Source: Moorena sp. SIO3B2 (lineage in GTDB: Bacteria > Cyanobacteriota > Cyanobacteriia > Cyanobacteriales > Coleofasciculaceae). From it: a stretch of DNA of 18,789 nucleotides. Below the pieces are notes generated by a model, which did no database searches, was not told where the DNA came from, and worked only from the letters and a program-made list of their open reading frames with translations. Both the position numbers and the translations under genes were made by a program. Shown here piece after piece: positions 1,803 to 18,271 of the stretch. The stretch lies in assembly GCF_010692525.1 (NCBI RefSeq), contig NZ_JAAHHE010000120.1, positions 1 through 18,789 on the forward strand. The letters run 5' to 3'. Numbering within the stretch: position 1 is the first letter of the stretch; each line of letters begins with the position of its first letter.

Positions 1803-3860
1803 GTGGAAAAGGGAACACTAATCGAATTTCGCTTACAAGGAGAACGCCATCTCGCTGTTGTCGATCGTCCAGAGGGCAAGAACCACTTGATTGCTTTGGA
1901 TCAACGGGGGAAACTGCACAAGCTCCATCCTCGACAAGTCACCTACACAGTGGCAGATTCTACTTATGAGCCATCACAAATACCAGAGTTTATTGCTCGA
2001 GTACAACCCTATCTAGACCCAGATAGCTTAGAATTAGCTTGGGAATTACTGGTGGAAGAAGGAGAGGCGGTTACCTGTGCTGACATGGCACAGTTATTAT
2101 TTTCTGAGCAAAGTCCACCCCAGTGCTATGCGGCACACTGTATTCTGTTTGAAGACAAAATCTATTTTAAACAAAAAGCACAAACCTATGAACCCCGCTC
2201 CGCTAGCATGGTGGCTGAAATCAAGCATCAACTGGCAGCGGCTCAATCAAAGCACCAGGAACAAGAAGAATTTTTGAAGCGAGTACAGCAAAAGTTAGGG
2301 GGTGAGCAAGTAGAGTGGGTTGATAGCGATCGCACTCGCTTTGATGCTCTAGAACGGTTCGTTAGTGAACCAGATAAACCATCTCGTGCAGTTCAGGAAA
2401 CTCTGGAAGCACTAAAACGCCCTCAAAACCCAGAAAATGCCTTCGATTTATTGATAAATTTGGGTTTGTGGCGTCCTCACCAGAAGTACTTGCTGCGTCA
2501 TAAAATCCCAACTCAATTTCGTCGTGAGGTACTCGAATTGACCCAGCAATACCTGGCAAATCCTCCTACTGACCCAGATTCAGATCGCTTGGATTTAACT
2601 CATCTGAAACTCTACACCATAGATGATGAAAGTACCCAAGAAATAGATGATGGTTTGAGTATAGAAGATCTAGAGGATGGCACTCAGCGTCTGTGGATTC
2701 ACATCGCTGACCCAACCCGCTTGGTAATGCCAGGGGATAATCTTGACCTAGAAGCACGACGGCGTAGTACCACCATATATCTACCCACGGGCATGATTCC
2801 CATGTTCCCATCGGAACTGGCAACTGGTCCAATGAGTTTGGTTCAAGGTCAAGTCTGTGGCGCACTCAGTTTTGGCGTGATCTTGGATCAAGATGGTGCC
2901 ATCTATGACTATCAGATTCACCCCAGCCTGATTAAACCCACCTATCGCCTGACTTATGAAGATGTAGATGAAATGTTGCAGTTAGGGGTACAGGCAGAAA
3001 CAGAACTGTTTGCGATCGCTAACTTGGCTGTGCGTCGGCAAAAGTGGCGCAAGTCTCAGGGGGCGATTAGCATCCATATGCCAGAGTCGGTAATCAAGGT
3101 GGGAAATGATGACCAAATTACCATTGAGGTGTTAGAAGATTCACCATCACGGCAAATGGTGGCAGAAATGATGATTCTGGCAGGTGAAGTGGCTGGACGC
3201 TATGGTCAAGCGCACCAAATTCCACTACCATTCCGAGGACAACCCCAGCCAGAACTTCCATCCCAAGAAGAACTGCTGCTATTGCCAGCCGGTCCAGTGC
3301 GGTTCTGTGCCATGCGTCGGTGTATGCCTAGAAGCGAAATGAGCATTACCCCAACACGCCACGCTAGTTTGGCTTTGGAAACTTACACCCAGGTAACCTC
3401 TCCGATCCGCCGCTACACTGACTTAATGACTCATTTCCAGCTGAAAGCTCATCTACGGGGTGACCCCCTACCCTTTGAAGCTGAAGATTTGCTCGAAACG
3501 ATGCAGAGTGTAACCAGAACAGCTAAGGATGCTAGTGAAGTAGAACGTGATACCAACAAATATTGGGGATTGGAATATTTGCGGCGTAACCCGAATCAGG
3601 TTTGGCAAGTATTAGTACTCAGTTGGTGGCGAGAAAACGAGAATAAGGGCAACATTCTCCTAGAAGAGTTAGGTCTAGAATTGCCCATGCGTTTCCAGCG
3701 TTCGGTTCAATTAGGCGATCGCTTACACGTCAAAGTCAGTCATGCTGATCCCCGTAAAGAAGTTATTCATTTTCAAGAACTAGCGAACTCAGAGGCTCAG
3801 CTTCCTTTTAACTCAAAGCTAGAAGATGGCTCAGCTTCTGCTGTGAACAGATTCGCGTAA
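1803..3860 (+). CDS. rnb: RNB-family 3'-5' exoribonuclease (RNase II / RNase R-like), GTG start
   Basis: 685 aa. RNB catalytic-region motif YTIDDESTQEIDDGLSIE. A 2-kb uninterrupted ORF. Position downstream of rpmG-rpsR is typical in cyanobacteria. The track 'M' at 1803 is a GTG codon. Confidence 0.85.
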   Translation: MEKGTLIEFRLQGERHLAVVDRPEGKNHLIALDQRGKLHKLHPRQVTYTVADSTYEPSQIPEFIARVQPYLDPDSLELAWELLVEEGEAVTCADMAQLLFSEQSPPQCYAAHCILFEDKIYFKQKAQTYEPRSASMVAEIKHQLAAAQSKHQEQEEFLKRVQQKLGGEQVEWVDSDRTRFDALERFVSEPDKPSRAVQETLEALKRPQNPENAFDLLINLGLWRPHQKYLLRHKIPTQFRREVLELTQQYLANPPTDPDSDRLDLTHLKLYTIDDESTQEIDDGLSIEDLEDGTQRLWIHIADPTRLVMPGDNLDLEARRRSTTIYLPTGMIPMFPSELATGPMSLVQGQVCGALSFGVILDQDGAIYDYQIHPSLIKPTYRLTYEDVDEMLQLGVQAETELFAIANLAVRRQKWRKSQGAISIHMPESVIKVGNDDQITIEVLEDSPSRQMVAEMMILAGEVAGRYGQAHQIPLPFRGQPQPELPSQEELLLLPAGPVRFCAMRRCMPRSEMSITPTRHASLALETYTQVTSPIRRYTDLMTHFQLKAHLRGDPLPFEAEDLLETMQSVTRTAKDASEVERDTNKYWGLEYLRRNPNQVWQVLVLSWWRENENKGNILLEELGLELPMRFQRSVQLGDRLHVKVSHADPRKEVIHFQELANSEAQLPFNSKLEDGSASAVNRFA

Positions 3861-4022
3861 ATCTCTGTCCTTTTATAAAAATCCCCCAAAGCCGAAAACC
3901 CCGTGTCTAATGACCGGGGATGAAGGCTCACAGCGGCTTGACGCGCCTAGAAAAATATTTCAGGAAAATCCGGAATTTTAGTCTGGATGTTGTAAAATAA
4001 GGGAGTGAACAGTTTAGGTCCC

Positions 4023-4118
4023 AGACGAAACCTTAGAATAGGGTCGCCTTTATGGTTTGTCGGCTATGGAAAAAGGGTTAAAACTGTTGTTATAAGGCGA
4101 CCCTATTCTTACGGTAAC
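4023..4118. repeat. ~96-bp palindromic hairpin element (PATE/MITE-like), copy A. It has a perfect 14-bp stem agaatagggtcgcc/ggcgaccctattct around a ~47-nt loop
   Basis: The loop is near-identical to copy B at 4906-5003. It lies 13 nt upstream of the tnpB ATG. Confidence 0.8.
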
Positions 4119-4130
4119 TTTAAGAAGCTG

Positions 4131-5477
4131 ATGATCATTTTAGAGTTCAAGGCGAAAGGAAAAAAACATCAATACTCTGGGATCAACGAGGCTATCCGGA
4201 CAGTCCAGTTCATCCGTAATAGCTGCCTCAGGTATTGGATGGAAAATAAAGGGGTCAACAAATTTGACCTTAATAAGTACAGTGCAGTCCTTGCTAAAAA
4301 CTTTCCTTTTGCTAATGAATTAAACTCTACTGCTCGTCAGTCTAGTGCTGAAAGAGCATGGTCATCAATTGTTCGATTCTTTGATAACTGCAAGAAAAAA
4401 GTACCTGGAAAGAAAGGTTTTCCTAAGTTCCAGAAAAACTGCCGCTCAGTGGAGTATAAACAGTCTGGATGGAAGTTATCCCCTGACAAGAAGTCAATCA
4501 CCTTTAGTGATAAAAAGGGTATTGGGAAGCTTAAGCTTAAAGGTACATGGGACTTGTGGCGCTTGGATAAAAAGGAAATAAAGCGAGTCCGTATAGTTCG
4601 CCGGGCTGATGGTTATTATGTCCAGTTTTGTGTTTCAGTTGATATCAAAGAGGAACTAGAGCCAAGTGGGACAGCTATCGGCTTGGATGTTGGACTAAAA
4701 TATTTTTACACTGATTCCGCTGGAAAAACTGAACCAAATCCCTGCTTTTACAGAACGGTAGAAAAACGCCTTAAGTTCTACCAGCGTCGAGTTTCTCGCA
4801 AGAAGAAAGGCTCATCCAATCGAAATAAAGCAGTTAATAGACTAGGCAGACAGCACCTTAAGATAAGTAGGCAACGTGAAGAGAACGCCAAGAGACTGGG
4901 AACGAAGTTACCGTAAGAATAAAGAAGCCTTTATGGTTAGTCGGCTATGCATAAAAGGGTTAAATCTTTGTTATTAAGGCTTCTTTATTCTAAGGTTTCG
5001 TCTCCGGCGCGCTGCGTAATCTGTTCTAACGATCTGGTCGCCTAGGTCGACTTAAGAGCCAAGAACCTAGTAAAAAATCACTGCCTCGCTAAGTCTATTA
5101 ATGATGCAGGTTGGTATCAGTTTAGGAAATGGATGGAGCACTTTGGCACCAAGTTCGGAAAGGTAACAGTTGCAGTAAATCCTGCATATACCAGCCAAAA
5201 CTGTTCCAATTGTGGCGAAGAAGTTAAAAAGTCCCTATCAACTAGGACTCATACGTGCAAGTGTGGTTGTCAGTTAGATAGAGACCACAACGCCGCAATA
5301 AACATCCTTAAGAAAGCCTTGGGTACGGTGGGGCACACCGGAACCTGGATCTTAAAAGATCTAAACGCTTCAGGAGAATCGGCCTCTACTGTTCTTGGTT
5401 CCGGCCAGGTTCAGCAAGCTGGCTCGTTGAATGAAGAATCCCCGCGTATGCGCGACCGGGGAGTGTCAAAAAACTAG
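4131..5477 (+). pseudogene. tnpB: tnpB (IS200/IS605 OrfB, RuvC-like nuclease), disrupted
   Basis: N-part MIILEFKAKGKKHQYSGINEAIRTVQFIRNSCLRYWMEN...AIGLDVGLKYFYTDSAG (RuvC-I). C-part FGTKFGKVTVAVNPAYTSQNCSNCGE...CKCGCQLDRDHNAAINI (Zn finger plus RuvC-III). The reading frame is broken by the 96-nt hairpin insert (stop at 4914) and by an in-frame TAG at 5043. Confidence 0.85.
4906..5003. repeat. ~96-bp palindromic hairpin element, copy B, inserted inside tnpB. It has a perfect 14-bp stem agaataaagaagcc/ggcttctttattct
   Basis: Insert between codons KLP (4911) and ARCVI (5007). Its length is a multiple of 3 but it carries a stop. The loop is co-linear with copy A. Confidence 0.8.
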
Positions 5478-5490
5478 AAAGCTTGCTTTG

Positions 5491-7065
5491 ATGTCTCGAC
5501 ATAAGTACAAGAGATTAAAACACCAAATCATCCGGGTACCGAGCCGTTGGTACTTCTGCCTATCTTTGGCTATTACCATCCTGCTGGGATGGCTTGGTGT
5601 AGCAGTAGCACAAGATAGTAACACGAATAATTTCACTAACCTGTCTACTATCTGGTTGTTAGTTTCATCTTTTCTAGTCTTTTTTATGAATGCTGGCTTT
5701 GCCATGTTAGAAGCCGGGTTATGTAGACGGAGAAATGCGACTAATGTCTTGGCTAAAAATTTGATAGTTTTCTGTATATCAGCCTTAGCCTTTTGGCTAG
5801 TTGGCTTTGGCTTAATGTTTGGTGATGGCATCACTTACAGTTGTGTTCCAGGAGAAAATAATAGTTTAAGTTTAGTGGGTCAAAAGGGGTTGTTTTTTAA
5901 TCTTCCCTTTCCCCAATTTGGAAATCTTGGTTTTCCAGAATCAGGATTTAATTGTCTCAATCAAGATTGGTCTAATCGCTCCTTTGCGGCTCTATTTTTA
6001 TTTCAGTTAGTCTTTGCTGGAACTGCAGCCACTATTGTTTCAGGAGCTGTTGCTGAACGGGTAAAATTCTGGGCATTTCTCCTATTTAGTTTTTTCCTGG
6101 TTGGTTTTATCTATCCCGTAACCGGTCACTGGGTTTGGGGACACTATGGTTGGCTAGCCAAGGCGCTAAAATTTCATGATTTTGCGGGTTCAACTGTAGT
6201 CCATAGTGTTGGTGGTATGGCTGGCTTGGTAGGGGCTTGGCTACTAAAGCCACGACAAGGTCGTTTTGGCTACAATTTAAGAACAGATAGATATGAAGGT
6301 CTCGAAACTGAAAAGTTCTCTGCCGATAATCTGGGTTTAGCCACCTTAGGCTGCTTAATTCTTTGGCTGGGCTGGTTTGGTTTTAATGGTGGCTCAGCAA
6401 AGGATCTCGATTATGTAGCTAATACCATCACAACTACCATGATGGCAGCAGCAGCTGGTGGAATATCCAGCGTATTTTTTAGTCCAATTATCCTGGGAAA
6501 ACCCAGTCTAGCCTCAATTATCAATGGCATTTTAGGTGGGTTGGTGGGAATTACAGCCTCAGCTGCTTTTGTAGATATCAAAAGTGCATTTATAATTGGC
6601 TCTATCAGCGGTATTTTTGTCCTTTTAGGCGAATATTTTCTACAAGTTTGGAAAATTGACGACCCCGTAGGTTCGATTCCTGTTCACCTTTTCTGTGGAT
6701 TTTGGGGAACGATTGCCTTAGGAATCTTTAGTAGCAATAGTTCTCTGTTGTACTCGGAACTTGATGTATATGACGATCCATTATTACAAGTGTTGTGTCA
6801 GTTCTTAGGCTGGCTGATTATTATCATTGTAACAGCTCTATTGAGTTTATTAGGTTGGCTATTAGTTAGCCTAATTTTATATTATGCAAGCCATATCAAT
6901 GAGCGGATTAGCGGCAAACAACGCCATAGGAAACAATTACGTCAAACCCAATATTTTCAATTGGGAGAATTTATCTTAACTATTTTTGAAATTGCTCGTC
7001 GAGGAATTAGGGTATCTTTGGAAGAAGAAATCAGTGGTAGCGATGGAGTTTTTTATAATCCTTAG
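5491..7065 (+). CDS. amt: Ammonium transporter (Amt/MEP family)
   Basis: FFMNAGFAMLEAG, the signature GWFGFNGGS, VHLFCGFWGTIALGIF, about 11 TM segments and an N-terminal signal-like region. Start set at the ATG at 5491. The track ORF began at an upstream alternative codon, 5431. Confidence 0.9.
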   Translation: MSRHKYKRLKHQIIRVPSRWYFCLSLAITILLGWLGVAVAQDSNTNNFTNLSTIWLLVSSFLVFFMNAGFAMLEAGLCRRRNATNVLAKNLIVFCISALAFWLVGFGLMFGDGITYSCVPGENNSLSLVGQKGLFFNLPFPQFGNLGFPESGFNCLNQDWSNRSFAALFLFQLVFAGTAATIVSGAVAERVKFWAFLLFSFFLVGFIYPVTGHWVWGHYGWLAKALKFHDFAGSTVVHSVGGMAGLVGAWLLKPRQGRFGYNLRTDRYEGLETEKFSADNLGLATLGCLILWLGWFGFNGGSAKDLDYVANTITTTMMAAAAGGISSVFFSPIILGKPSLASIINGILGGLVGITASAAFVDIKSAFIIGSISGIFVLLGEYFLQVWKIDDPVGSIPVHLFCGFWGTIALGIFSSNSSLLYSELDVYDDPLLQVLCQFLGWLIIIIVTALLSLLGWLLVSLILYYASHINERISGKQRHRKQLRQTQYFQLGEFILTIFEIARRGIRVSLEEEISGSDGVFYNP

Positions 7066-10214: not shown

Positions 10215-10336
10215 AGGTGCGACCCGTTCGCGTAGCGTTGGCAAAGCCAATAGGTGCGACCCAAGGGCGATTTATTCGCCCTTGGAGGCGCGCACCAATA
10301 GGTGCGAATTTAATTCTTAATGGGTCAAGCGCACCT
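10215..10336. repeat. Cluster of three (a)ggtgcga-type units. The third unit, 10301-10335, is the reverse complement of the copy at 14353-14397. The second unit contains the palindrome aagggcgatttattcgccctt
   Basis: The string ggtgcgaatttaattcttaatgggtcaagcgcacc reverse-complements to ggtgcgcttgacccattaagaattaaattcgcacc, which matches 14353-14397 apart from a 9-nt indel. Confidence 0.7.
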
Positions 10337-10681
10337 AAGGCAGTTATAAGGACATACTGCTTAGTACTACTTGCCTCTACACCCTAGTTAACGTTATACT
10401 TATCTAAGGCTAAACATTTGGCTCAAGCCTATAACAAAAAGTATTATATTTCTATGTCAGGGCAGCTCTATTTAGTTAACGTAACAAAAATTATTAAAAT
10501 TTAATCCCTACTTATAGGCATCAACTGAGCCATGCTCTTAGCAACTTAGACCATCGGAAATGAAAAATAAATTACTTAACTTGAAAAAAAGTAATATATG
10601 ATACATTTTGATGGTAAGTTTAATGAAGATTTCAAAAACCATTAGCAATCTGTAAAGATTCGGCAAAGTCTATCAGAAGTG

Positions 10682-11344: not shown

Positions 11345-14245
11345 ATGGCAATCACTGTAGAGGAAATATTAACACCAGACATCAACAGACCAGCCCGTTA
11401 CTTAGGTAACGAGTTGGGAGCAGTCCATAAACCTTGGGAAGAAGCTGAGGTACGCTGGGTATTGACTTATCCAGAAATCTATGAAGTGGGGGCTTCTAAC
11501 TTAGGCCATATCATCCTCTACAATATATTGAATTATCAACCTAGGCAATTATGCGATCGCGCCTATCTACCTGCCCCAGACTTGGCAGCTAAATTACGTT
11601 CCACTCAAACCCCTCTGTTTGCTGTCGAGAATCGGCGACCTCTGAAAGATTTTGATATTATTGGCTTTAGCCTTAGCTATGAATTAGGGGCAACCAACAT
11701 CTTGGAAATGTTGGATTTGGGAGGAATTCCCCTGACCTGGAAAGACCGTGCTCAGTTTGATATATCGGAAATACCCCTAATTTTTGCAGGTGGACAAACG
11801 GCGACATCGAATCCTGAACCCTATGCTGATTTCTTAGATTTTGTTGATCTTGGCGATGGGGAAGAATTGTTGCCAGAGATTGGCTTAGTAATCGAAGAAG
11901 GCAAAGCAGCTGGCTTAAGTCGAGAAGCGTTACTCCTGGATTTGGCTCAGATACCAGGGGTGTATGTCCCCCAATTCTATGATATGACTGAGGATGGCTC
12001 AGTTAAACCCAACCGCCCTGATGTGCCGAAGCGGATTTTGCGGCGTGTGGCTACACCGATGCCTGCCTATGCTATTGGACTAGTACCCTATATCCAAACG
12101 GTTCATGACCGACTCAAGATCGAAGTGCGACGGGGCTGTACTCGGGGTTGTCGCTTCTGCCAACCTGGGATGCTGACTCGACCAGCGCGGGATGTGGAAC
12201 CAGAAAAAGTGGTGGAAGCTATTGAACAAGGGATGCGTGCTACAGGGTATAACGAGTTTTCCCTTCTATCCCTGAGTTGTTCGGATTACCTGGCTCTACC
12301 AGCGGTGGGGATGGAAATCAAAAATCGTCTTAAGGATCAGAATATTTCCTTGTCCCTACCGAGTCAGCGGGTAGACCGCTTTGATGAGAATATTGCCAAT
12401 ATCCTAGGGGGCAATCGGCAGAGTGGCTTGACCTTTGCCCCAGAAGCAGGAACTCAGCGGATGCGGGATATTGTTAATAAGGGACTGACTAATGAAGAAC
12501 TGCTCAGGGGAGTAAAGACGGCATTTGAGCAAGGCTGGGAGAAAGTCAAGCTCTATTTTATGATTGGTTTGCCCGGTGAAACGGATATGGATGTGTTGGG
12601 GATTGCGGAAACGGTGCGTTGGTTGCAGCAGGAGTGCCGTGCTAAAGGCAGAAAAACCATTAAGTTTAACATAACTGTTTCTAATTTTACCCCAAAACCT
12701 CACACCCCATTCCAGTGGCATTCCGTATCGACTTCGGAGTTTGAACGCAAGCAGGAATTACTCAAACAAGTATTTGGTCAGATCAGGGGGGTGAAGGTTA
12801 ATTACACCGATGTTCGGATTTCGGCCATGGAAGATTTCGTGGGACGGGGTGACAGACGCTTAAGTGCGGTGGTGCGCCGTGCTTGGGAATTGGGGGCAGG
12901 GATGGACTCCTGGATGGAAAGCTTGGATCGGGCATTTGCTGCTTGGGAAAATGCGATCGCTTCATCAGGTCTGACCTGGAAATATCGCCAAGTAGAAAAT
13001 GGCGAATGGAACGTGATGGCGGGTGTAGAAGAGTTGCAAGTTGGAAGGTTGTTCGCGAAGCGTGGCCAAAAGGCCAAGGTTGAAAGTTCAGAGCAACCAG
13101 CTAACCTACAACCAGCTAACCTACAACCAACTAACCGACAACCAACTAACCGACAACCAACTAACCTTCAACCAGCTAACCTTCAACCAACTAACCTTCA
13201 ACCAACTAACCTTCAACCTTCTAACCTTCAACCTTCTAACCTTCAACCTTCTAACCTTCAACCTTCTAACCTTCAACCAGCTAACCTTCAACCAGCTAAC
13301 CTTCAACCGTCAACCCTTAACGCCCTTGATGCTCCCTTGCCTTGGGATCATATTGATACGGGAATTGATAAGAATTGGCTCAAGGAAGATTTACAACGGG
13401 CGTTAGATGCAGCAACGGTACCGGATTGTTCCTTTGATGGGTGTTCTCACTGTGGTGTGTGTGGGATTGATTTTGGTCATAATGTGGTGATTGACCCGCC
13501 ACAGATTCCGCAATTTGCTGGTCACTTTAAACCCAATACTAATAAGGATCAGCGGCTGCGGGTTTGGTTTGGAAAGTTGGGGGATATGACCTTGTTGGGT
13601 CATCTGGATTTGGCAAGTCTGTTTGAGAGAGCAGTAAGACGGGCGTCACTGCCAATTCGATATAGTGGGGGGTTTCGGGCTAATGCTCGGATTATGATTG
13701 CTAATGCGTTGCCCTTGGGAGCGTCTAGCAGTGGGGAGATTGTGGAGTTTGAGTTAACTGAGAAAATGCCAGTTGAGGAGTTTAGGGAAAGGCTGGTGTC
13801 TCAGTTGCCTGAAGAGATTCCGGTGTATGGGGTTGAAGCAGTGGATTTGAAGGAACCTGCGGGAACTCAGCTGTTGGAGAGAGCTGAGTATTTGATTCGA
13901 GTTGAGGTAATATCAGAAGCGTCTTGGGAAGAGTGGCAGGGTTGGATTGAAGCAATCAAAGGTAGTAAGGAAATTTGGTGGGAGCGGTTTACGAAGTCGG
14001 GGAAGAAGCAGTGGGTGAATTTATGCGATCGCTTATTTGACTTCGAGGTGATCGAACCCCAAAAATCCAAAGATGGTGAAGAGGAGGTTGCGGAGTCTGG
14101 GGTGGTTTTGCGGTATGTGGGGAGTTGTTTGAATGATGGCACGATGTTGCGACCAGAGCACATTATTTATATGTTGGAGCAGGTGGCGCAGCGGGAGTTT
14201 CGTTTGTTGCATGTTCATCGGCAACGGTTGATTCTGCGCAATTGA
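11345..14245 (+). CDS. Radical SAM protein (B12-binding-domain type, TIGR03960-like) fused to a C-terminal DUF2344-like domain, with a repeat-expanded linker
   Basis: 966 aa. It has the CxxxCxxC cluster RGCTRGCRFCQPGM. The N-terminus PARYLGNELGAVHKPW is typical of this rSAM family. The C-terminal ~270 aa after the repeats resemble DUF2344. Confidence 0.9.
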   Translation: MAITVEEILTPDINRPARYLGNELGAVHKPWEEAEVRWVLTYPEIYEVGASNLGHIILYNILNYQPRQLCDRAYLPAPDLAAKLRSTQTPLFAVENRRPLKDFDIIGFSLSYELGATNILEMLDLGGIPLTWKDRAQFDISEIPLIFAGGQTATSNPEPYADFLDFVDLGDGEELLPEIGLVIEEGKAAGLSREALLLDLAQIPGVYVPQFYDMTEDGSVKPNRPDVPKRILRRVATPMPAYAIGLVPYIQTVHDRLKIEVRRGCTRGCRFCQPGMLTRPARDVEPEKVVEAIEQGMRATGYNEFSLLSLSCSDYLALPAVGMEIKNRLKDQNISLSLPSQRVDRFDENIANILGGNRQSGLTFAPEAGTQRMRDIVNKGLTNEELLRGVKTAFEQGWEKVKLYFMIGLPGETDMDVLGIAETVRWLQQECRAKGRKTIKFNITVSNFTPKPHTPFQWHSVSTSEFERKQELLKQVFGQIRGVKVNYTDVRISAMEDFVGRGDRRLSAVVRRAWELGAGMDSWMESLDRAFAAWENAIASSGLTWKYRQVENGEWNVMAGVEELQVGRLFAKRGQKAKVESSEQPANLQPANLQPTNRQPTNRQPTNLQPANLQPTNLQPTNLQPSNLQPSNLQPSNLQPSNLQPANLQPANLQPSTLNALDAPLPWDHIDTGIDKNWLKEDLQRALDAATVPDCSFDGCSHCGVCGIDFGHNVVIDPPQIPQFAGHFKPNTNKDQRLRVWFGKLGDMTLLGHLDLASLFERAVRRASLPIRYSGGFRANARIMIANALPLGASSSGEIVEFELTEKMPVEEFRERLVSQLPEEIPVYGVEAVDLKEPAGTQLLERAEYLIRVEVISEASWEEWQGWIEAIKGSKEIWWERFTKSGKKQWVNLCDRLFDFEVIEPQKSKDGEEEVAESGVVLRYVGSCLNDGTMLRPEHIIYMLEQVAQREFRLLHVHRQRLILRN
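13094..13319 (+). repeat. 15 in-frame tandem copies of a 15-nt unit (caaccagctaacctt and variants), encoding (P[AST]N[LR]Q)x15 inside the rSAM gene
   Basis: Read directly. Unit variants are ..gct/act/tct.. and ..cta/cga/ctt... The repeat generates spurious ORFs on other frames (13041-13406 + and 13121-13306 -). Confidence 0.95.
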
Positions 14246-14352: not shown

Positions 14353-14397
14353 GGTGCGCTTGACCCATTAAGAATTAAATTCGCCACGGGTCGCACC
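14353..14397. repeat. ggtgcg...cgcacc hairpin repeat copy, inverted relative to the 10301-10335 copy
   Basis: See 10215-10336. It shares its 3' half with the copy at 20-63. Confidence 0.7.
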
Positions 14398-16583: not shown

Positions 16584-18271
16584 ACCGTCATCAATCGGGA
16601 TAAAACCGAATAAAACGGCCAAGGTGCATTTTATTGATGTCTGAGTGAGGAGCGGTCAAGTAGCAATTGGAGTCAAGCCTCCCGCTCATCTATCTAGACG
16701 TTCCTCACATCCCGGTGAGGAGTTCCTTAAAAGCTTGAGTTTTGGCATGCTTGCGGTCAAGCCATCCTAGCTTAACCGCGTCAGCTAAAGTCAAATCCAT
16801 ACCTTCTAAGAAACGCGCAGTACGACGCAACAATACTGCCTGCACTTCAACCCTAGTCATAAACCGGGAGATTCCTTGATCTGTACCACGAGCAAGGATA
16901 TTCTTCGCAGCATTGTGATCAGCCTGCAACACGACCCCATTAAATCTGATAAAACTGTCCCCAATCCTTGCTCCCAATAAGGTGCCAGAAAAGGAGTCAA
17001 TTTGCGACGTGTAGCTTGGCTGGACTTCTGTCACAACCGAACCAGTCCAATTAGCCCATTTCTGCAAGGAGTACCGCATTTCTCCTTTCATCCAGCTATT
17101 CAACTTGCGAGACATAGCCTTTGACTGGCGTTTATTTTTGATTGGTTGCGTTAAATCCTCAGCAAAAATTCTTAGAGATTCTCCTTTGAAGAGGGATTTA
17201 GAAGCAGCCCCTATAATCGCCCTCAACTCTGATTGATCTCTTCTGTAACGACTGTTTTCTGTTTTTCGACTCAGATTATTTTTCAGTATCCGAGCTGATT
17301 TAGCTGGATCTATTTTTTCTAGCTTCCTATGTATTGCCCAGAGTTTTCCTCTGTTCCGATTTTTGGCGCATATTCGATGGCCAAAAGGCCACGCTACGCG
17401 AACGGATTTTATGGTTGCTATTTTGCCCAGGTTCTTCCCGTGTGCCTGACCATCTGAATCATAAAAAGCCTCGGTGTATCCCTTGTCTACTCCTATCGCT
17501 CGACGTTCAGGAGGAATCTCAGCTGTCCCGTGATTAACCAAAAAATGAATCTCAAATCTTGCCAGTAGAGAGTTGTATATTAGTCTAATCTGTCCTTTAA
17601 TATTTCGATTAGACCTAACTATTAGTTTGTTTCTTTTTCCTCTTCTGATTCCAGCTAATTCCAATTGATAAGTATAACGAGACAATCGTTTACACGAGTA
17701 TCCTCCTTGTTGGTATACAACTTGATTCTTGACCCAATAATGTCCTCTCTGAAACTCTTTCCTTACAAGTCTGTGCAATAGTGGATTATCCAGAAAAGCT
17801 GAAGTTTTGAGTTGCTTAGAGATATCCTTTCTGATCTTCTGGTTTTCCTTTCCAGGAAACCTCTTATAGATCTTTTTTATGACTGCCTCAATGGAAGCCG
17901 CTTGTTGAGCTGTGATAGTTTTAGCTACATCACTGACAGTCCATTCCATTAACTTGGAAGGCAAGCCCAGGGACTCAGGCTTCCTGAAGTCCCTGACTTC
18001 TGGGTAGGCTTTTTTCCAGTCAAGTCCCCAATGACTTATACTACCCAGCTTGTTGTAAGACTCAGACCTGACGACGCCTAGTTTTTTCATCGTAGACAAC
18101 AGCTCAAGCTCAACCGACTTAGCTATCCCTACAACTGGGACGACCTGAGTCGATATCTTCTTTACTGCGCCTACTTTCTTTTGCATCATCAACGGTGTGT
18201 ACAGCTTTTGCTATATACTGCCATTATAGTCTAGCGCTATAAAATTGTCAATGTCCAGTTCGCACTATTAA
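16584..18271 (-). mobile_element. Insertion element carrying a TnpB-like gene, minus orientation. Ends are approximate
   Basis: MVP-like coding sequence stops at 16583 and resumes at 18272. The 3' flank contains the hairpin cctcacatcccggtgagg. Confidence 0.5.
16705..18192 (-). CDS. TnpB-like (IS200/IS605 OrfB-type) RuvC-fold nuclease/transposase-associated protein, 495 aa, without the usual CxxC..CxxC zinc finger
   Basis: RuvC-I AIGVDKGYTEAFYDSDGQ, RuvC-II IFAEDLTQPIKNKRQSKAMSRKLNSW, RuvC-III VVLQADHNAAKNILARG. There are no Cys residues between RuvC-II and RuvC-III. Confidence 0.75.
   Translation of the reverse strand: MMMQKKVGAVKKISTQVVPVVGIAKSVELELLSTMKKLGVVRSESYNKLGSISHWGLDWKKAYPEVRDFRKPESLGLPSKLMEWTVSDVAKTITAQQAASIEAVIKKIYKRFPGKENQKIRKDISKQLKTSAFLDNPLLHRLVRKEFQRGHYWVKNQVVYQQGGYSCKRLSRYTYQLELAGIRRGKRNKLIVRSNRNIKGQIRLIYNSLLARFEIHFLVNHGTAEIPPERRAIGVDKGYTEAFYDSDGQAHGKNLGKIATIKSVRVAWPFGHRICAKNRNRGKLWAIHRKLEKIDPAKSARILKNNLSRKTENSRYRRDQSELRAIIGAASKSLFKGESLRIFAEDLTQPIKNKRQSKAMSRKLNSWMKGEMRYSLQKWANWTGSVVTEVQPSYTSQIDSFSGTLLGARIGDSFIRFNGVVLQADHNAAKNILARGTDQGISRFMTRVEVQAVLLRRTARFLEGMDLTLADAVKLGWLDRKHAKTQAFKELLTGM

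Follow-up and report, generated by a model that had tools for sequence, protein, structure and literature searches.

How can two copies of one hairpin element differ along their stems and yet each be perfectly paired? The question is raised by contig NZ_JAAHHE010000120.1 of the cyanobacterium Moorena sp. SIO3B2 (18,789 nucleotides, all of which we refer to as the window), in which an insertion sequence (IS) of the IS200/IS605 type carries two copies of a short palindromic element: copy A in the 5' leader of its tnpB gene and copy B inside that gene. The original prediction, made from the letters of the window alone, had described two related hairpins with compensated stems and had ascribed them to selection on single-stranded DNA (ssDNA) or on a structured RNA, with copying from arm to arm as the alternative. 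Here we describe a dispersed family of such elements, whose most notable features are the flip/flop isomerism of the loop, insertions and deletions (indels) that are mirrored in the two arms, concerted evolution at paralogous sites and a GG signature at the junctions. [quoted passage not shown]

Two foldback insertions in one insertion sequence

We read region 3700-5600 of the window directly and delimited both copies with the help of related alleles (Table 1; L-numbers denote loci returned by the genome scan described below and P-numbers denote database proteins). Copy A was placed between the left-end hairpin of the IS (3898-3919) and the tnpB ATG at 4131. An empty allele, L021, puts its last base 7 nt before the ATG, where 13 nt had been given, and in element orientation it reads TTAAAGTTACCG...GGTTTCGTCTGG. 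Copy B is composed of GAACG, a 99-nt core, CC and one GG; this makes 108 nt, a length established by the empty alleles L001 and L057 in place of the earlier 96 nt, and GG stands at both of its junctions (4898-4899 and 5006-5007). The termini common to the two copies are AAGTTACCGTAAGAATA ... TATTCTAAGGTTTCGTCT, and the gttac/gtaac beside an arm, previously pointed out as a possible flanking target, belongs to the conserved left terminus of the element. The stems had been put at 14 bp and the loops at ~47 nt; the stems are perfect over 16 bp (AGAATA + 6 nt + GCCT T) and the loops measure 43-44 nt. As to the claim that the stem differences are fully compensated, every one of them is mirrored in the other arm, but GGGTCG and AAGAAG differ at four of the six positions and not at all six.

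Chance is not the explanation of this resemblance. In the 18.8-kb window there are exactly two matches to the 18-mer TATTCTAAGGTTTCGTCT and exactly two to the 17-mer AAGTTACCGTAAGAATA, in each case in opposite orientations (expected 0.03-0.07); the loop motif TATGGTTNGTCGGCTATG is present twice, both times on one strand. Because the loop motif lies on one strand and the termini lie on opposite strands, the loops are co-oriented and the termini are inverted between the copies, just as the swapped outer arms around co-oriented loops had suggested. Further, the ssDNA folds of both copies beat shuffled sequence (z -2.9 to -4.6), and a profile derived from the family matches copies A and B only in the window. 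With the terminus counts and fold scores in agreement, both copies are confirmed as real and as related hairpins.

The original prediction had also attached weight to the in-frame insertion of copy B into tnpB. Copy B sits within an alanine codon, and the true protein junction is ...AKRL/ARCVI...; of the junction first proposed, between KLP and ARCVI, the ARCVI side stands, and K-L-P is encoded by the element. That the length of copy B is divisible by three is without significance, because it has internal in-frame stops (4914, 4920 and 4938 in translation), its sister copies at the same tnpB site in other paralogues start at the left end with TTAG, where copy B has GAACG, and are therefore 107 nt long, and tnpB is a pseudogene. 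The gene carries a TAG at 5043-5045 and has lost the glutamate of the RuvC YEDL motif, which has become valine (region 5043-5048; paralogue alignment), and is a pseudogene independently of copy B. Copy B interrupts a tnpB that was already or subsequently dead, copy A lies in the 5' leader of the same IS, and a host function has been demonstrated for neither. We also considered an in-frame coding insert like the Rickettsia palindromic elements (RPEs), which was ruled out by stops in nearly all frames and by the 107-nt sisters; almost no copy of the family has an open frame.

A family dispersed over Moorena genomes

We searched 185,579 species-representative genomes for exact matches to the 18-mer of the right terminus and obtained 76 loci, of which 71 are in five Moorena genomes, namely M. 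producens 3L, M. bouillonii PNG, SIO3I8, SIO3H5 and SS36440bin_2. The other 5 are expected chance matches without the element. Allowing <=3 mismatches per terminus, we count 67 distinct full copies in 43 site clusters. A profile search of 640 kb of collected Moorena DNA gave 227 matches, which correspond to ~110 copies because palindromic copies score on both strands. No copies were found in viral contig and plasmid collections, the best megablast matches of the window among the collected Moorena loci were paralogues at 77-85%, and our literature search found neither a description of this family nor a paper on Moorena/Moorea MITEs. These data confirm that the element forms a dispersed family, which in these scans is confined to the genus Moorena.

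A local duplication within one IS, with no family behind it, would agree with the presence of only two copies in the window, both in the same IS, and the original prediction had tied this reading to a lack of further copies anywhere. Given the 71 exact terminus matches in five other Moorena genomes, the spread of the full copies over 43 unrelated site clusters and the existence of empty alleles for both window sites, its probability is negligible.

Covariation of the two arms

The consensus of the family is [GG] T(C/T)AG - AAGTTACCG(T/C)A - AGAATA NNNNNN GCCTT - loop ~44 nt - AAGGC N'N'N'N'N'N' TATTCT - AAGGTTTCGTCT - CC [GG], with GAACG, TTTG and TTA as left-end variants of T(C/T)AG. The outer termini, GGT(C/T)AGAAGTTACCG... 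and ...AAGGTTTCGTCTCC, are nearly invariant and asymmetric. At equal offsets, 52 of 66 copies have a perfect 16-bp stem (57 of 67 when 15-bp deletion variants are counted), and 1025 of 1056 stem cells (97%) are complementary. Stem positions 7, 8, 10 and 11 take three or four different bases across the family, and there are 15 distinct stem haplotypes that are perfectly paired. When arms are re-paired between copies, 12.5±0.18 of the 16 positions match, compared with the 15.5 observed.

A formal count was made on a MAFFT alignment (A4) of 53 distinct sequences, from which identical rows had been removed and in which relatedness was otherwise uncorrected. Here 95.8% of cells are paired, compared with at most 54% in slid controls; double-sided changes are found in 8 of the 16 stem pairs, and the cells with changes on both sides number 83, where shuffles give 24.9±3.3 (0/500). 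The covariation is real and family-wide, and on both the re-pairing and the double-sided counts the compensating changes first noticed in two copies keep the arms complementary far beyond chance. The idea that the variable stem bases are an address for the target site was rejected by inspection, as the same haplotype occurs at unrelated targets and one target has several haplotypes.

Loop inversion and probable arm-to-arm correction

Scored against the asymmetric termini, the loop is in the flip orientation in 46 copies, like copy B, and in the reverse-complemented or flop orientation in 20, like copy A; the window copies are simply one isomer of each kind. Three stem haplotypes were found in both loop states, and the 75-nt inner hairpins of L046 and L048, which are framed by identical termini, are reverse complements without a single difference. 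Even after normalisation for orientation the loops are only ~71% identical between copies, while the arms retain their complementarity.

Changes in one arm are repeated in the other. Deletions of 1 nt are mirrored in both arms (AAGATAGTGG.../...CCACTATCT), and at an orthologous site the comparison of L074 with L022 and L068 reveals AATA->AAGA on the left with a mirrored TATT->TCTT on the right. At L002 (~845-905), normal termini surround a loopless perfect palindrome of two 22-nt arms, whose left arm is symmetrised to CCTTAGAATA, including the part that is normally asymmetric; snap-back or template-switch copying seems to have produced this copy. Chimeric arms are present in a few copies (GGGTCG/CTCCAC in L034 and GTGGAG/CGACCC in L069), as would be expected of gene-conversion tracts that end in the loop. 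Finally, the 31 unpaired stem cells, counted in register, include no G.T wobble on either strand.

Quasipalindromes and short inverted repeats are known to undergo both templated correction from arm to arm and recombination between their arms. Minute inversions of hairpin loops in the non-coding DNA of plastids, in which short inverted repeats recurrently invert the loop between them, were reportedly described by Kelchner & Wendel in 1996, and quasipalindrome template-switch mutation in E. coli, which turns imperfect into perfect palindromes by arm copying, is said to have been documented by Ripley in 1982 and by Dutra & Lovett in 2006. These systems match the flip/flop isomers, the mirrored indels and the symmetrised L002 of the present family; they are static sequences, whereas here we have a mobile family with gene conversion between copies.

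The flipped loops, the mirrored changes and the absence of wobbles argue against RNA selection and favour templated correction and recombination between the arms. Arm-to-arm homogenisation, which the original prediction had listed as the alternative, gains direct support from the mirrored deletions, the change mirrored in situ, the L002 palindrome and the L046/L048 isomers. A structured RNA, be it a small RNA or a cis-regulatory or processing hairpin, would place the stem under selection in dispersed genes or mobile modules, and both the strong double-sided covariation in half of the stem pairs and the position of copy A in the tnpB leader would suit it. Yet Rfam 15 gave no match in the window at the gathering threshold and none at E<=1 for 3850-5550, the loop is reverse-complemented in 20 of 66 copies (~30%), with one pair of exact isomers among them, the unpaired cells include no G.U intermediates, indels are mirrored, and copies lie in both orientations inside the genes of other mobile elements. 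We therefore consider a structured RNA highly improbable and favour DNA-level arm homogenisation or gene conversion over it; a hairpin requirement during transposition may act as well.

Insertion next to a single GG

Every intragenic insertion that we found lies within a gene of another mobile element, and most copies are either intergenic or in such genes. The interrupted genes are IS605-type tnpB, a second TnpB-like gene (L011/L066), IS607 tnpA at two sites, and the reverse transcriptase of a group II intron (L021, L029, L043, L074). The element is also nested in its own copies (L016, L034, L041, L055) and within a second small repeat (L034, about 4682-4830).

Ten target sites were reconstructed or inferred from empty alleles, restored reading frames and host consensus (Table 1). 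Removal of both copies from L015, for instance, exactly restores a 198-aa TnpA with Resolvase and MerR domains (Pfam). GG is present at both junctions in eight of the ten site groups, for six of which a single target GG was reconstructed, and in a ninth it is present at the right junction only. The 5' flanks (ACTGG, CCGGG, CTTGG, ATGAT, AATGG, GATGG, CTACGG, TCTTGG, GAGCGG and GCTTC) have only GG in common, and the bases after GTCT are CCGG in 27 of the 43 site clusters. The element inserts next to a single target GG, which then flanks it on both sides on the same strand. An insertion-site consensus, which had been put forward as a check, thus exists in the form of GG at the junctions, with copy A as the exception.

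Empty sites of the family are also found in the window. The one in the left-end hairpin of the host IS (3898-3926) is the most used target of the family, filled in L001, L007, L018, L030, L049, L054, L057, L064, L069 and L070. At the intragenic site in the TnpB-like open reading frame (ORF), filled paralogues read TTCTT[GG]-element-[GG]AAGG. The window has TTAGAA where these have TT[GG]AA, a synonymous change, and with AG instead of GG the GG target is therefore absent in the window allele.

Table 1. Positions of the element copies, their host and related sites in the window unless a locus is named, and target sequences of the family
Feature	Position	Strand	Basis or remark
Copy A, whole insertion, 103 nt	4021-4123	-	alignment with empty allele L021; terminus matches; nhmmer E=3e-18
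Copy A, stem arm beside left terminus, AGAATAGGGTCGCCTT in element orientation	4094-4109	-	pairs with 4035-4050; sequence, fold, stem table
Copy A, stem arm beside right terminus	4035-4050	-	perfect 16-bp complement of 4094-4109
Copy A, loop, 43 nt, flop relative to termini	4051-4093	-	orientation scoring
Copy B, whole insertion, 108 nt	4900-5007	+	empty alleles L001, L057; filled paralogues L026, L072, L069, L019, L054; translation
Copy B, left stem arm AGAATAAAGAAGCCTT	4916-4931	+	sequence, fold, stem table
Copy B, right stem arm AAGGCTTCTTTATTCT	4976-4991	+	perfect 16-bp complement of left arm; sequence, fold
Copy B, loop, 44 nt, flip orientation	4932-4975	+	orientation scoring
Host gene, IS200/IS605-type tnpB pseudogene, copy B inside	4131-5477	+	Pfam OrfB_IS605 and Cas12f1-like_TNB on repaired protein; translation; paralogue alignment
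Empty site in left-end hairpin of host IS, ACCCCGTGTCTAATGACCGG/GGATGAAGG	3898-3926	+	same site filled elsewhere
TnpB-like ORF, 495 aa	16705-18192	-	PF07282; Moorena paralogues carry the element at two sites, both empty here
Empty intragenic site, window reads TTCTTAGAAGG	16797-16818	-	alignment with L067, L051
Empty site just downstream of stop codon (16705), GATGAGC GG GAGGC	16669-16690	-	filled in L047, L071, L051
IS607 tnpA split by two inverted element copies	L015 4231-5040		also L039, L073
Target, tnpB			ACT[GG]CAC
Target, IS left-end hairpin			CCG[GG]GATG
Target, IS607 tnpA site 1			CTT[GG]TCA
Target, IS607 tnpA site 2			GAT/[GG]AGA; GG on right only
Target, group II intron reverse transcriptase			AAT[GG]AGG
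Target, second TnpB			GAT[GG]AAA
Target, small repeat			TAC[GG]AAA
Target, TnpB-like ORF 16705-18192, site 1			CTT[GG]AAG
Target, just 3' of TnpB-like ORF, site 2			AGC[GG]CAG
Target, window copy A			exception: empty allele without GG; element end GTCT-GG

Concerted evolution at paralogous sites

Elements that occupy the same position in diverged paralogous hosts are 99-100% identical, and their flanks, measured over 250 nt, are 66-88% identical. Copy B and L026 share an element that is 100% identical between flanks of 76% and 80%, L019 and L054 do so between flanks of 79% and 73%, and the four group II intron copies are likewise 100% identical with flanks of 76-88%. Among tnpB-site pairs, the most similar flanks are those of L026 and L019 (85% and 87%), yet these two carry different elements, 62% identical and with the other stem type and the other loop orientation. 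Three IS607 copies of M. bouillonii, ~83% identical overall, have in common a ~320-nt block of 100% identity that consists of two inverted element copies and the 88 nt of tnpA between them. The truncated 162-aa product of the tnpA split in this way (L015, also L039 and L073) is annotated in the databases as 'IS607 family transposase' (P0047, P0062). While their hosts diverge, the elements do not, which points either to gene conversion, perhaps after breaks at the palindrome, or to repeated hits at the same sites.

A candidate mobilising enzyme

What moves such an element? We consider the case for IS607-type mobilisation to be about evenly balanced, because the insertion signature fits but an autonomous parent and matching ends were not found; the main alternative is a DDE transposase with a preference for GG. 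In published work, every IS607 insertion lies at GG, with (G)GG preferred, no duplication and GG at the termini, as fits an exchange with a 2-bp overlap (PMC6188088). The element resembles the family (IS607, IS1535, ISC1926) in its insertion at GG, its same-strand GG boundaries and the lack of any other duplication, (G)GG runs being favoured in that family (PMC6188088). It differs in having no transposase gene and a length of only ~105 bp, and in being a long foldback, where the ends of IS607 elements are described as being unrelated and as carrying direct repeats in subterminal position. Dozens of intact IS607 transposases of 195-199 aa are annotated in Moorena.

In the mechanism that we propose, movement would be catalysed in trans by a serine transposase of the IS607 family, with GG as the crossover dinucleotide at both ends and in the target. 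The arms would be kept complementary by templated correction from one arm to the other and by gene conversion from copy to copy, with breaks at the palindrome as a possible trigger, and the same recombination between arms would invert the loop. A requirement for a hairpin or cruciform in joining the two ends of so short an element may add to this.

Several observations weigh against this explanation. No autonomous or longer element with these termini was found in the 71 loci and 640 kb of Moorena DNA, a limited sample, and solo termini in the Moorena loci belong to copies that are degenerate, variant or nested. In five Moorena IS607 copies, the true ends do not look like those of the element: their left ends are GG-AAAAGGCTTGTAGC, GG-GGTTAGTAGAC and so on, their right ends are ...GGTAGCTAAAAAG(G/T)ATC-GG, and the end comparison, made with loci L015, L039, L073, L077, L083, L084 and L087, gave no convincing match. 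Two likenesses were the only ones seen. The left terminus TCAGAAGTTACCGCA matches an internal tnpA segment, TCAGAACTTACCGCA, at 14 of 15 positions, a score reached by 0/300 shuffles (the segment lies at ~3531 in L084 and ~3474 in L087, in the IS607 tnpA codons ESELTA), and GGTTAGAATTTACC matches a subterminal stretch of an IS607 right end (L015 ~6365) at 13 of 14; both were noticed post hoc and are leads only. At the junctions, the left GG is missing from three site clusters (tnpA site 2, window copy A and L062/L065), and copy A has an empty allele without any GG and ends in GTCT-GG, not GTCTCC-GG. Published IS607 ends are not inverted repeats, whereas the element is a foldback, and a double-stranded DNA circle of ~105 bp would be mechanically awkward. 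A 2-bp GG duplication made by a DDE transposase is formally possible, and hairpin selection and pure homogenisation are not separable with these data.

More tentatively, and with less confidence than we place in IS607-type movement itself, the family could be the first described non-autonomous IS607 derivative: a foldback moved by a serine transposase, with the hairpin substituting for DNA looping and with break repair flipping the loop and spreading the copies. By means of the perfect hairpin, the crossover GGs at the two ends of a 105-bp element would come to lie next to each other, and stem pairing, but not stem sequence, would be preserved because the hairpin substitutes for looping. The palindrome would provoke breaks, and in their repair the loop would be turned over and the element copied from one paralogous host to another, a homing-like spread without a homing enzyme. 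Our literature search found no non-autonomous IS607 derivative or IS607-derived MITE, and a 2024 review of prokaryotic MITEs leaves IS607 unmentioned. The element would be a new variant if the link to a serine transposase holds.

Comparison with other small mobile repeats

The element works like a MITE, or like the hairpins of paired repetitive extragenic palindromes (REPs) known as REPINs, in that it is a small, non-autonomous, hairpin-forming and self-propagating repeat. It has the generic traits of MITEs, lacks the defining traits of REPINs and of palindrome-associated transposable elements (PATEs), and agrees with IS607 in insertion signature and co-occurrence and not in the similarity of its ends. 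At 103-108 nt it is well within the limit of <~600 bp for MITEs, and it is non-coding with many dispersed copies. Like bacterial MITEs (Correia/CREE, Nezha, MaeMITEs, the 'type II' MITEs of Anabaena sp. 90 and RPEs), it is small, multi-copy and able to form a hairpin, it disrupts genes into pseudogenes, and, as is often the case among them (PMC3542288, PMC2779907), no parent IS was found for it in the collected Moorena DNA. Unlike them, it has junctions fixed at GG and not TA or another length-defined duplication, asymmetric outermost termini, a hypervariable yet complementary inner stem and two loop orientations; unlike RPEs in particular, it is not kept as an in-frame coding insert. An ordinary DDE MITE, with imperfect terminal inverted repeats, a 2-bp target duplication and a strong preference for GG, is nevertheless the rival that deserves most attention, although we regard it as unlikely. 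Imperfect outer inverted repeats are present (T(C/T)AGAAGTTACCG... and ...CGAAACC.. in reverse complement) around the perfect inner one, and the GG looks duplicated at most reconstructed sites, as it also would after a GG crossover. Against this, the flanking dinucleotide is always GG and not any 2 bp, there is at least one clean insertion without duplication (tnpA site 2), and a parent IS with these repeats was not found in the limited sample of collected Moorena DNA. Moreover, we know of no IS family that makes GG-specific 2-bp duplications. In favour of this reading, cyanobacteria commonly harbour 'type II' MITEs for which no parent IS can be identified (PMC3542288).

Mobilisation by an IS200/IS605 TnpA, as the original prediction had envisaged, would make the element a PATE, that is, an ssDNA hairpin cut and pasted by a Y1 HUH transposase at the replication fork, with selection on the hairpin explaining the covariation. 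The element does fold as ssDNA with its arm complementarity maintained, shows no long target duplication beyond the 2-bp GG at both junctions, and is found inside IS200/IS605-type elements, often beside their end hairpin; like PATEs, it is non-autonomous and resides in genomes rich in IS200/IS605 and TnpB. However, it forms one long hairpin over its whole length, without distinct subterminal hairpins at its left and right ends, no tetra- or pentanucleotide is common to the 5' flanks of the ten sites, its termini bear no relation to the end hairpins (CCCCG...CGGGG) of the resident host IS (3898-3919, 5440-5461), and GG at both junctions fits a 2-bp crossover and not Y1 cleavage. A PATE is thus improbable. 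Even less likely is a REPIN, an inverted REP doublet replicated by a single-copy REP-associated tyrosine transposase (RAYT), vertically inherited and with its hairpin kept for the RAYT. The size of ~100 nt, the foldback organisation and the restriction to one genus would be in keeping with such a lineage-restricted population, and compensatory changes on both sides of the hairpin have been described for REPINs (PMC3116915), which shows that such changes in foldback mobile DNA have a precedent (PMC3116915). The arms of the element, though, are not short palindromes and lack a GTAG or CGTC tag as defined in PMC3733652, and copies lie within coding sequences and in each other, with GG at their junctions. 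A CGTC-tagged REP was considered separately and rejected, because the architecture does not fit: after the CGTC of the right terminus there is no stem of 8-9 bp. No RAYT was seen, and no Y1 gene turned up beside copies in the Moorena loci, neither having been searched for systematically.

Neighbouring repeats

A second small palindromic repeat family, of ~45 nt, is present in the window at 20-63, 10251-10337 and 14353-14397. It reads AGGTGCG..GGCGAATT(T/A)AATTCGCC..CGCACCT, with variable arm segments CTTTCCGT/ACCCGTG, and has 45 core matches in the collected Moorena DNA. This repeat is inserted in the loops of hairpin-element copies at L008, L027, L040 and L058, and is itself a target of the hairpin element at L034. 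Elsewhere in the window, the heptamer tandem repeats CAGCGGT/CAGCTAT and AGCTGAT, at 948-975 and 1143-1170, form a long-range inverted pair and resemble those common in filamentous cyanobacteria. A 15-nt tandem array of ~19 units (13064-13348) encodes (Q-P-[A/T/S]-N-[L/R])n inside a 966-aa ORF at 11345-14245.

Significance

The hairpin family and the second repeat litter Moorena genomes and split transposase, TnpB and intron genes into ORFs that are called separately; clusters of a 162-aa "IS607 transposase" that end inside the element are one example in current annotation. Because Moorena is heavily mined for natural-product gene clusters, it is worthwhile to catalogue a repeat that disrupts both assemblies and genes. 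The family also provides a clean natural example of a foldback whose arms evolve together, including their indels, whose loop flips and flops, and whose copies at paralogous sites evolve in concert. If the GG signature does reflect mobilisation by a serine transposase, it would extend the repertoire of the IS607 family to miniature passengers and would offer a 105-bp substrate for studying how the enzyme pairs two ends.

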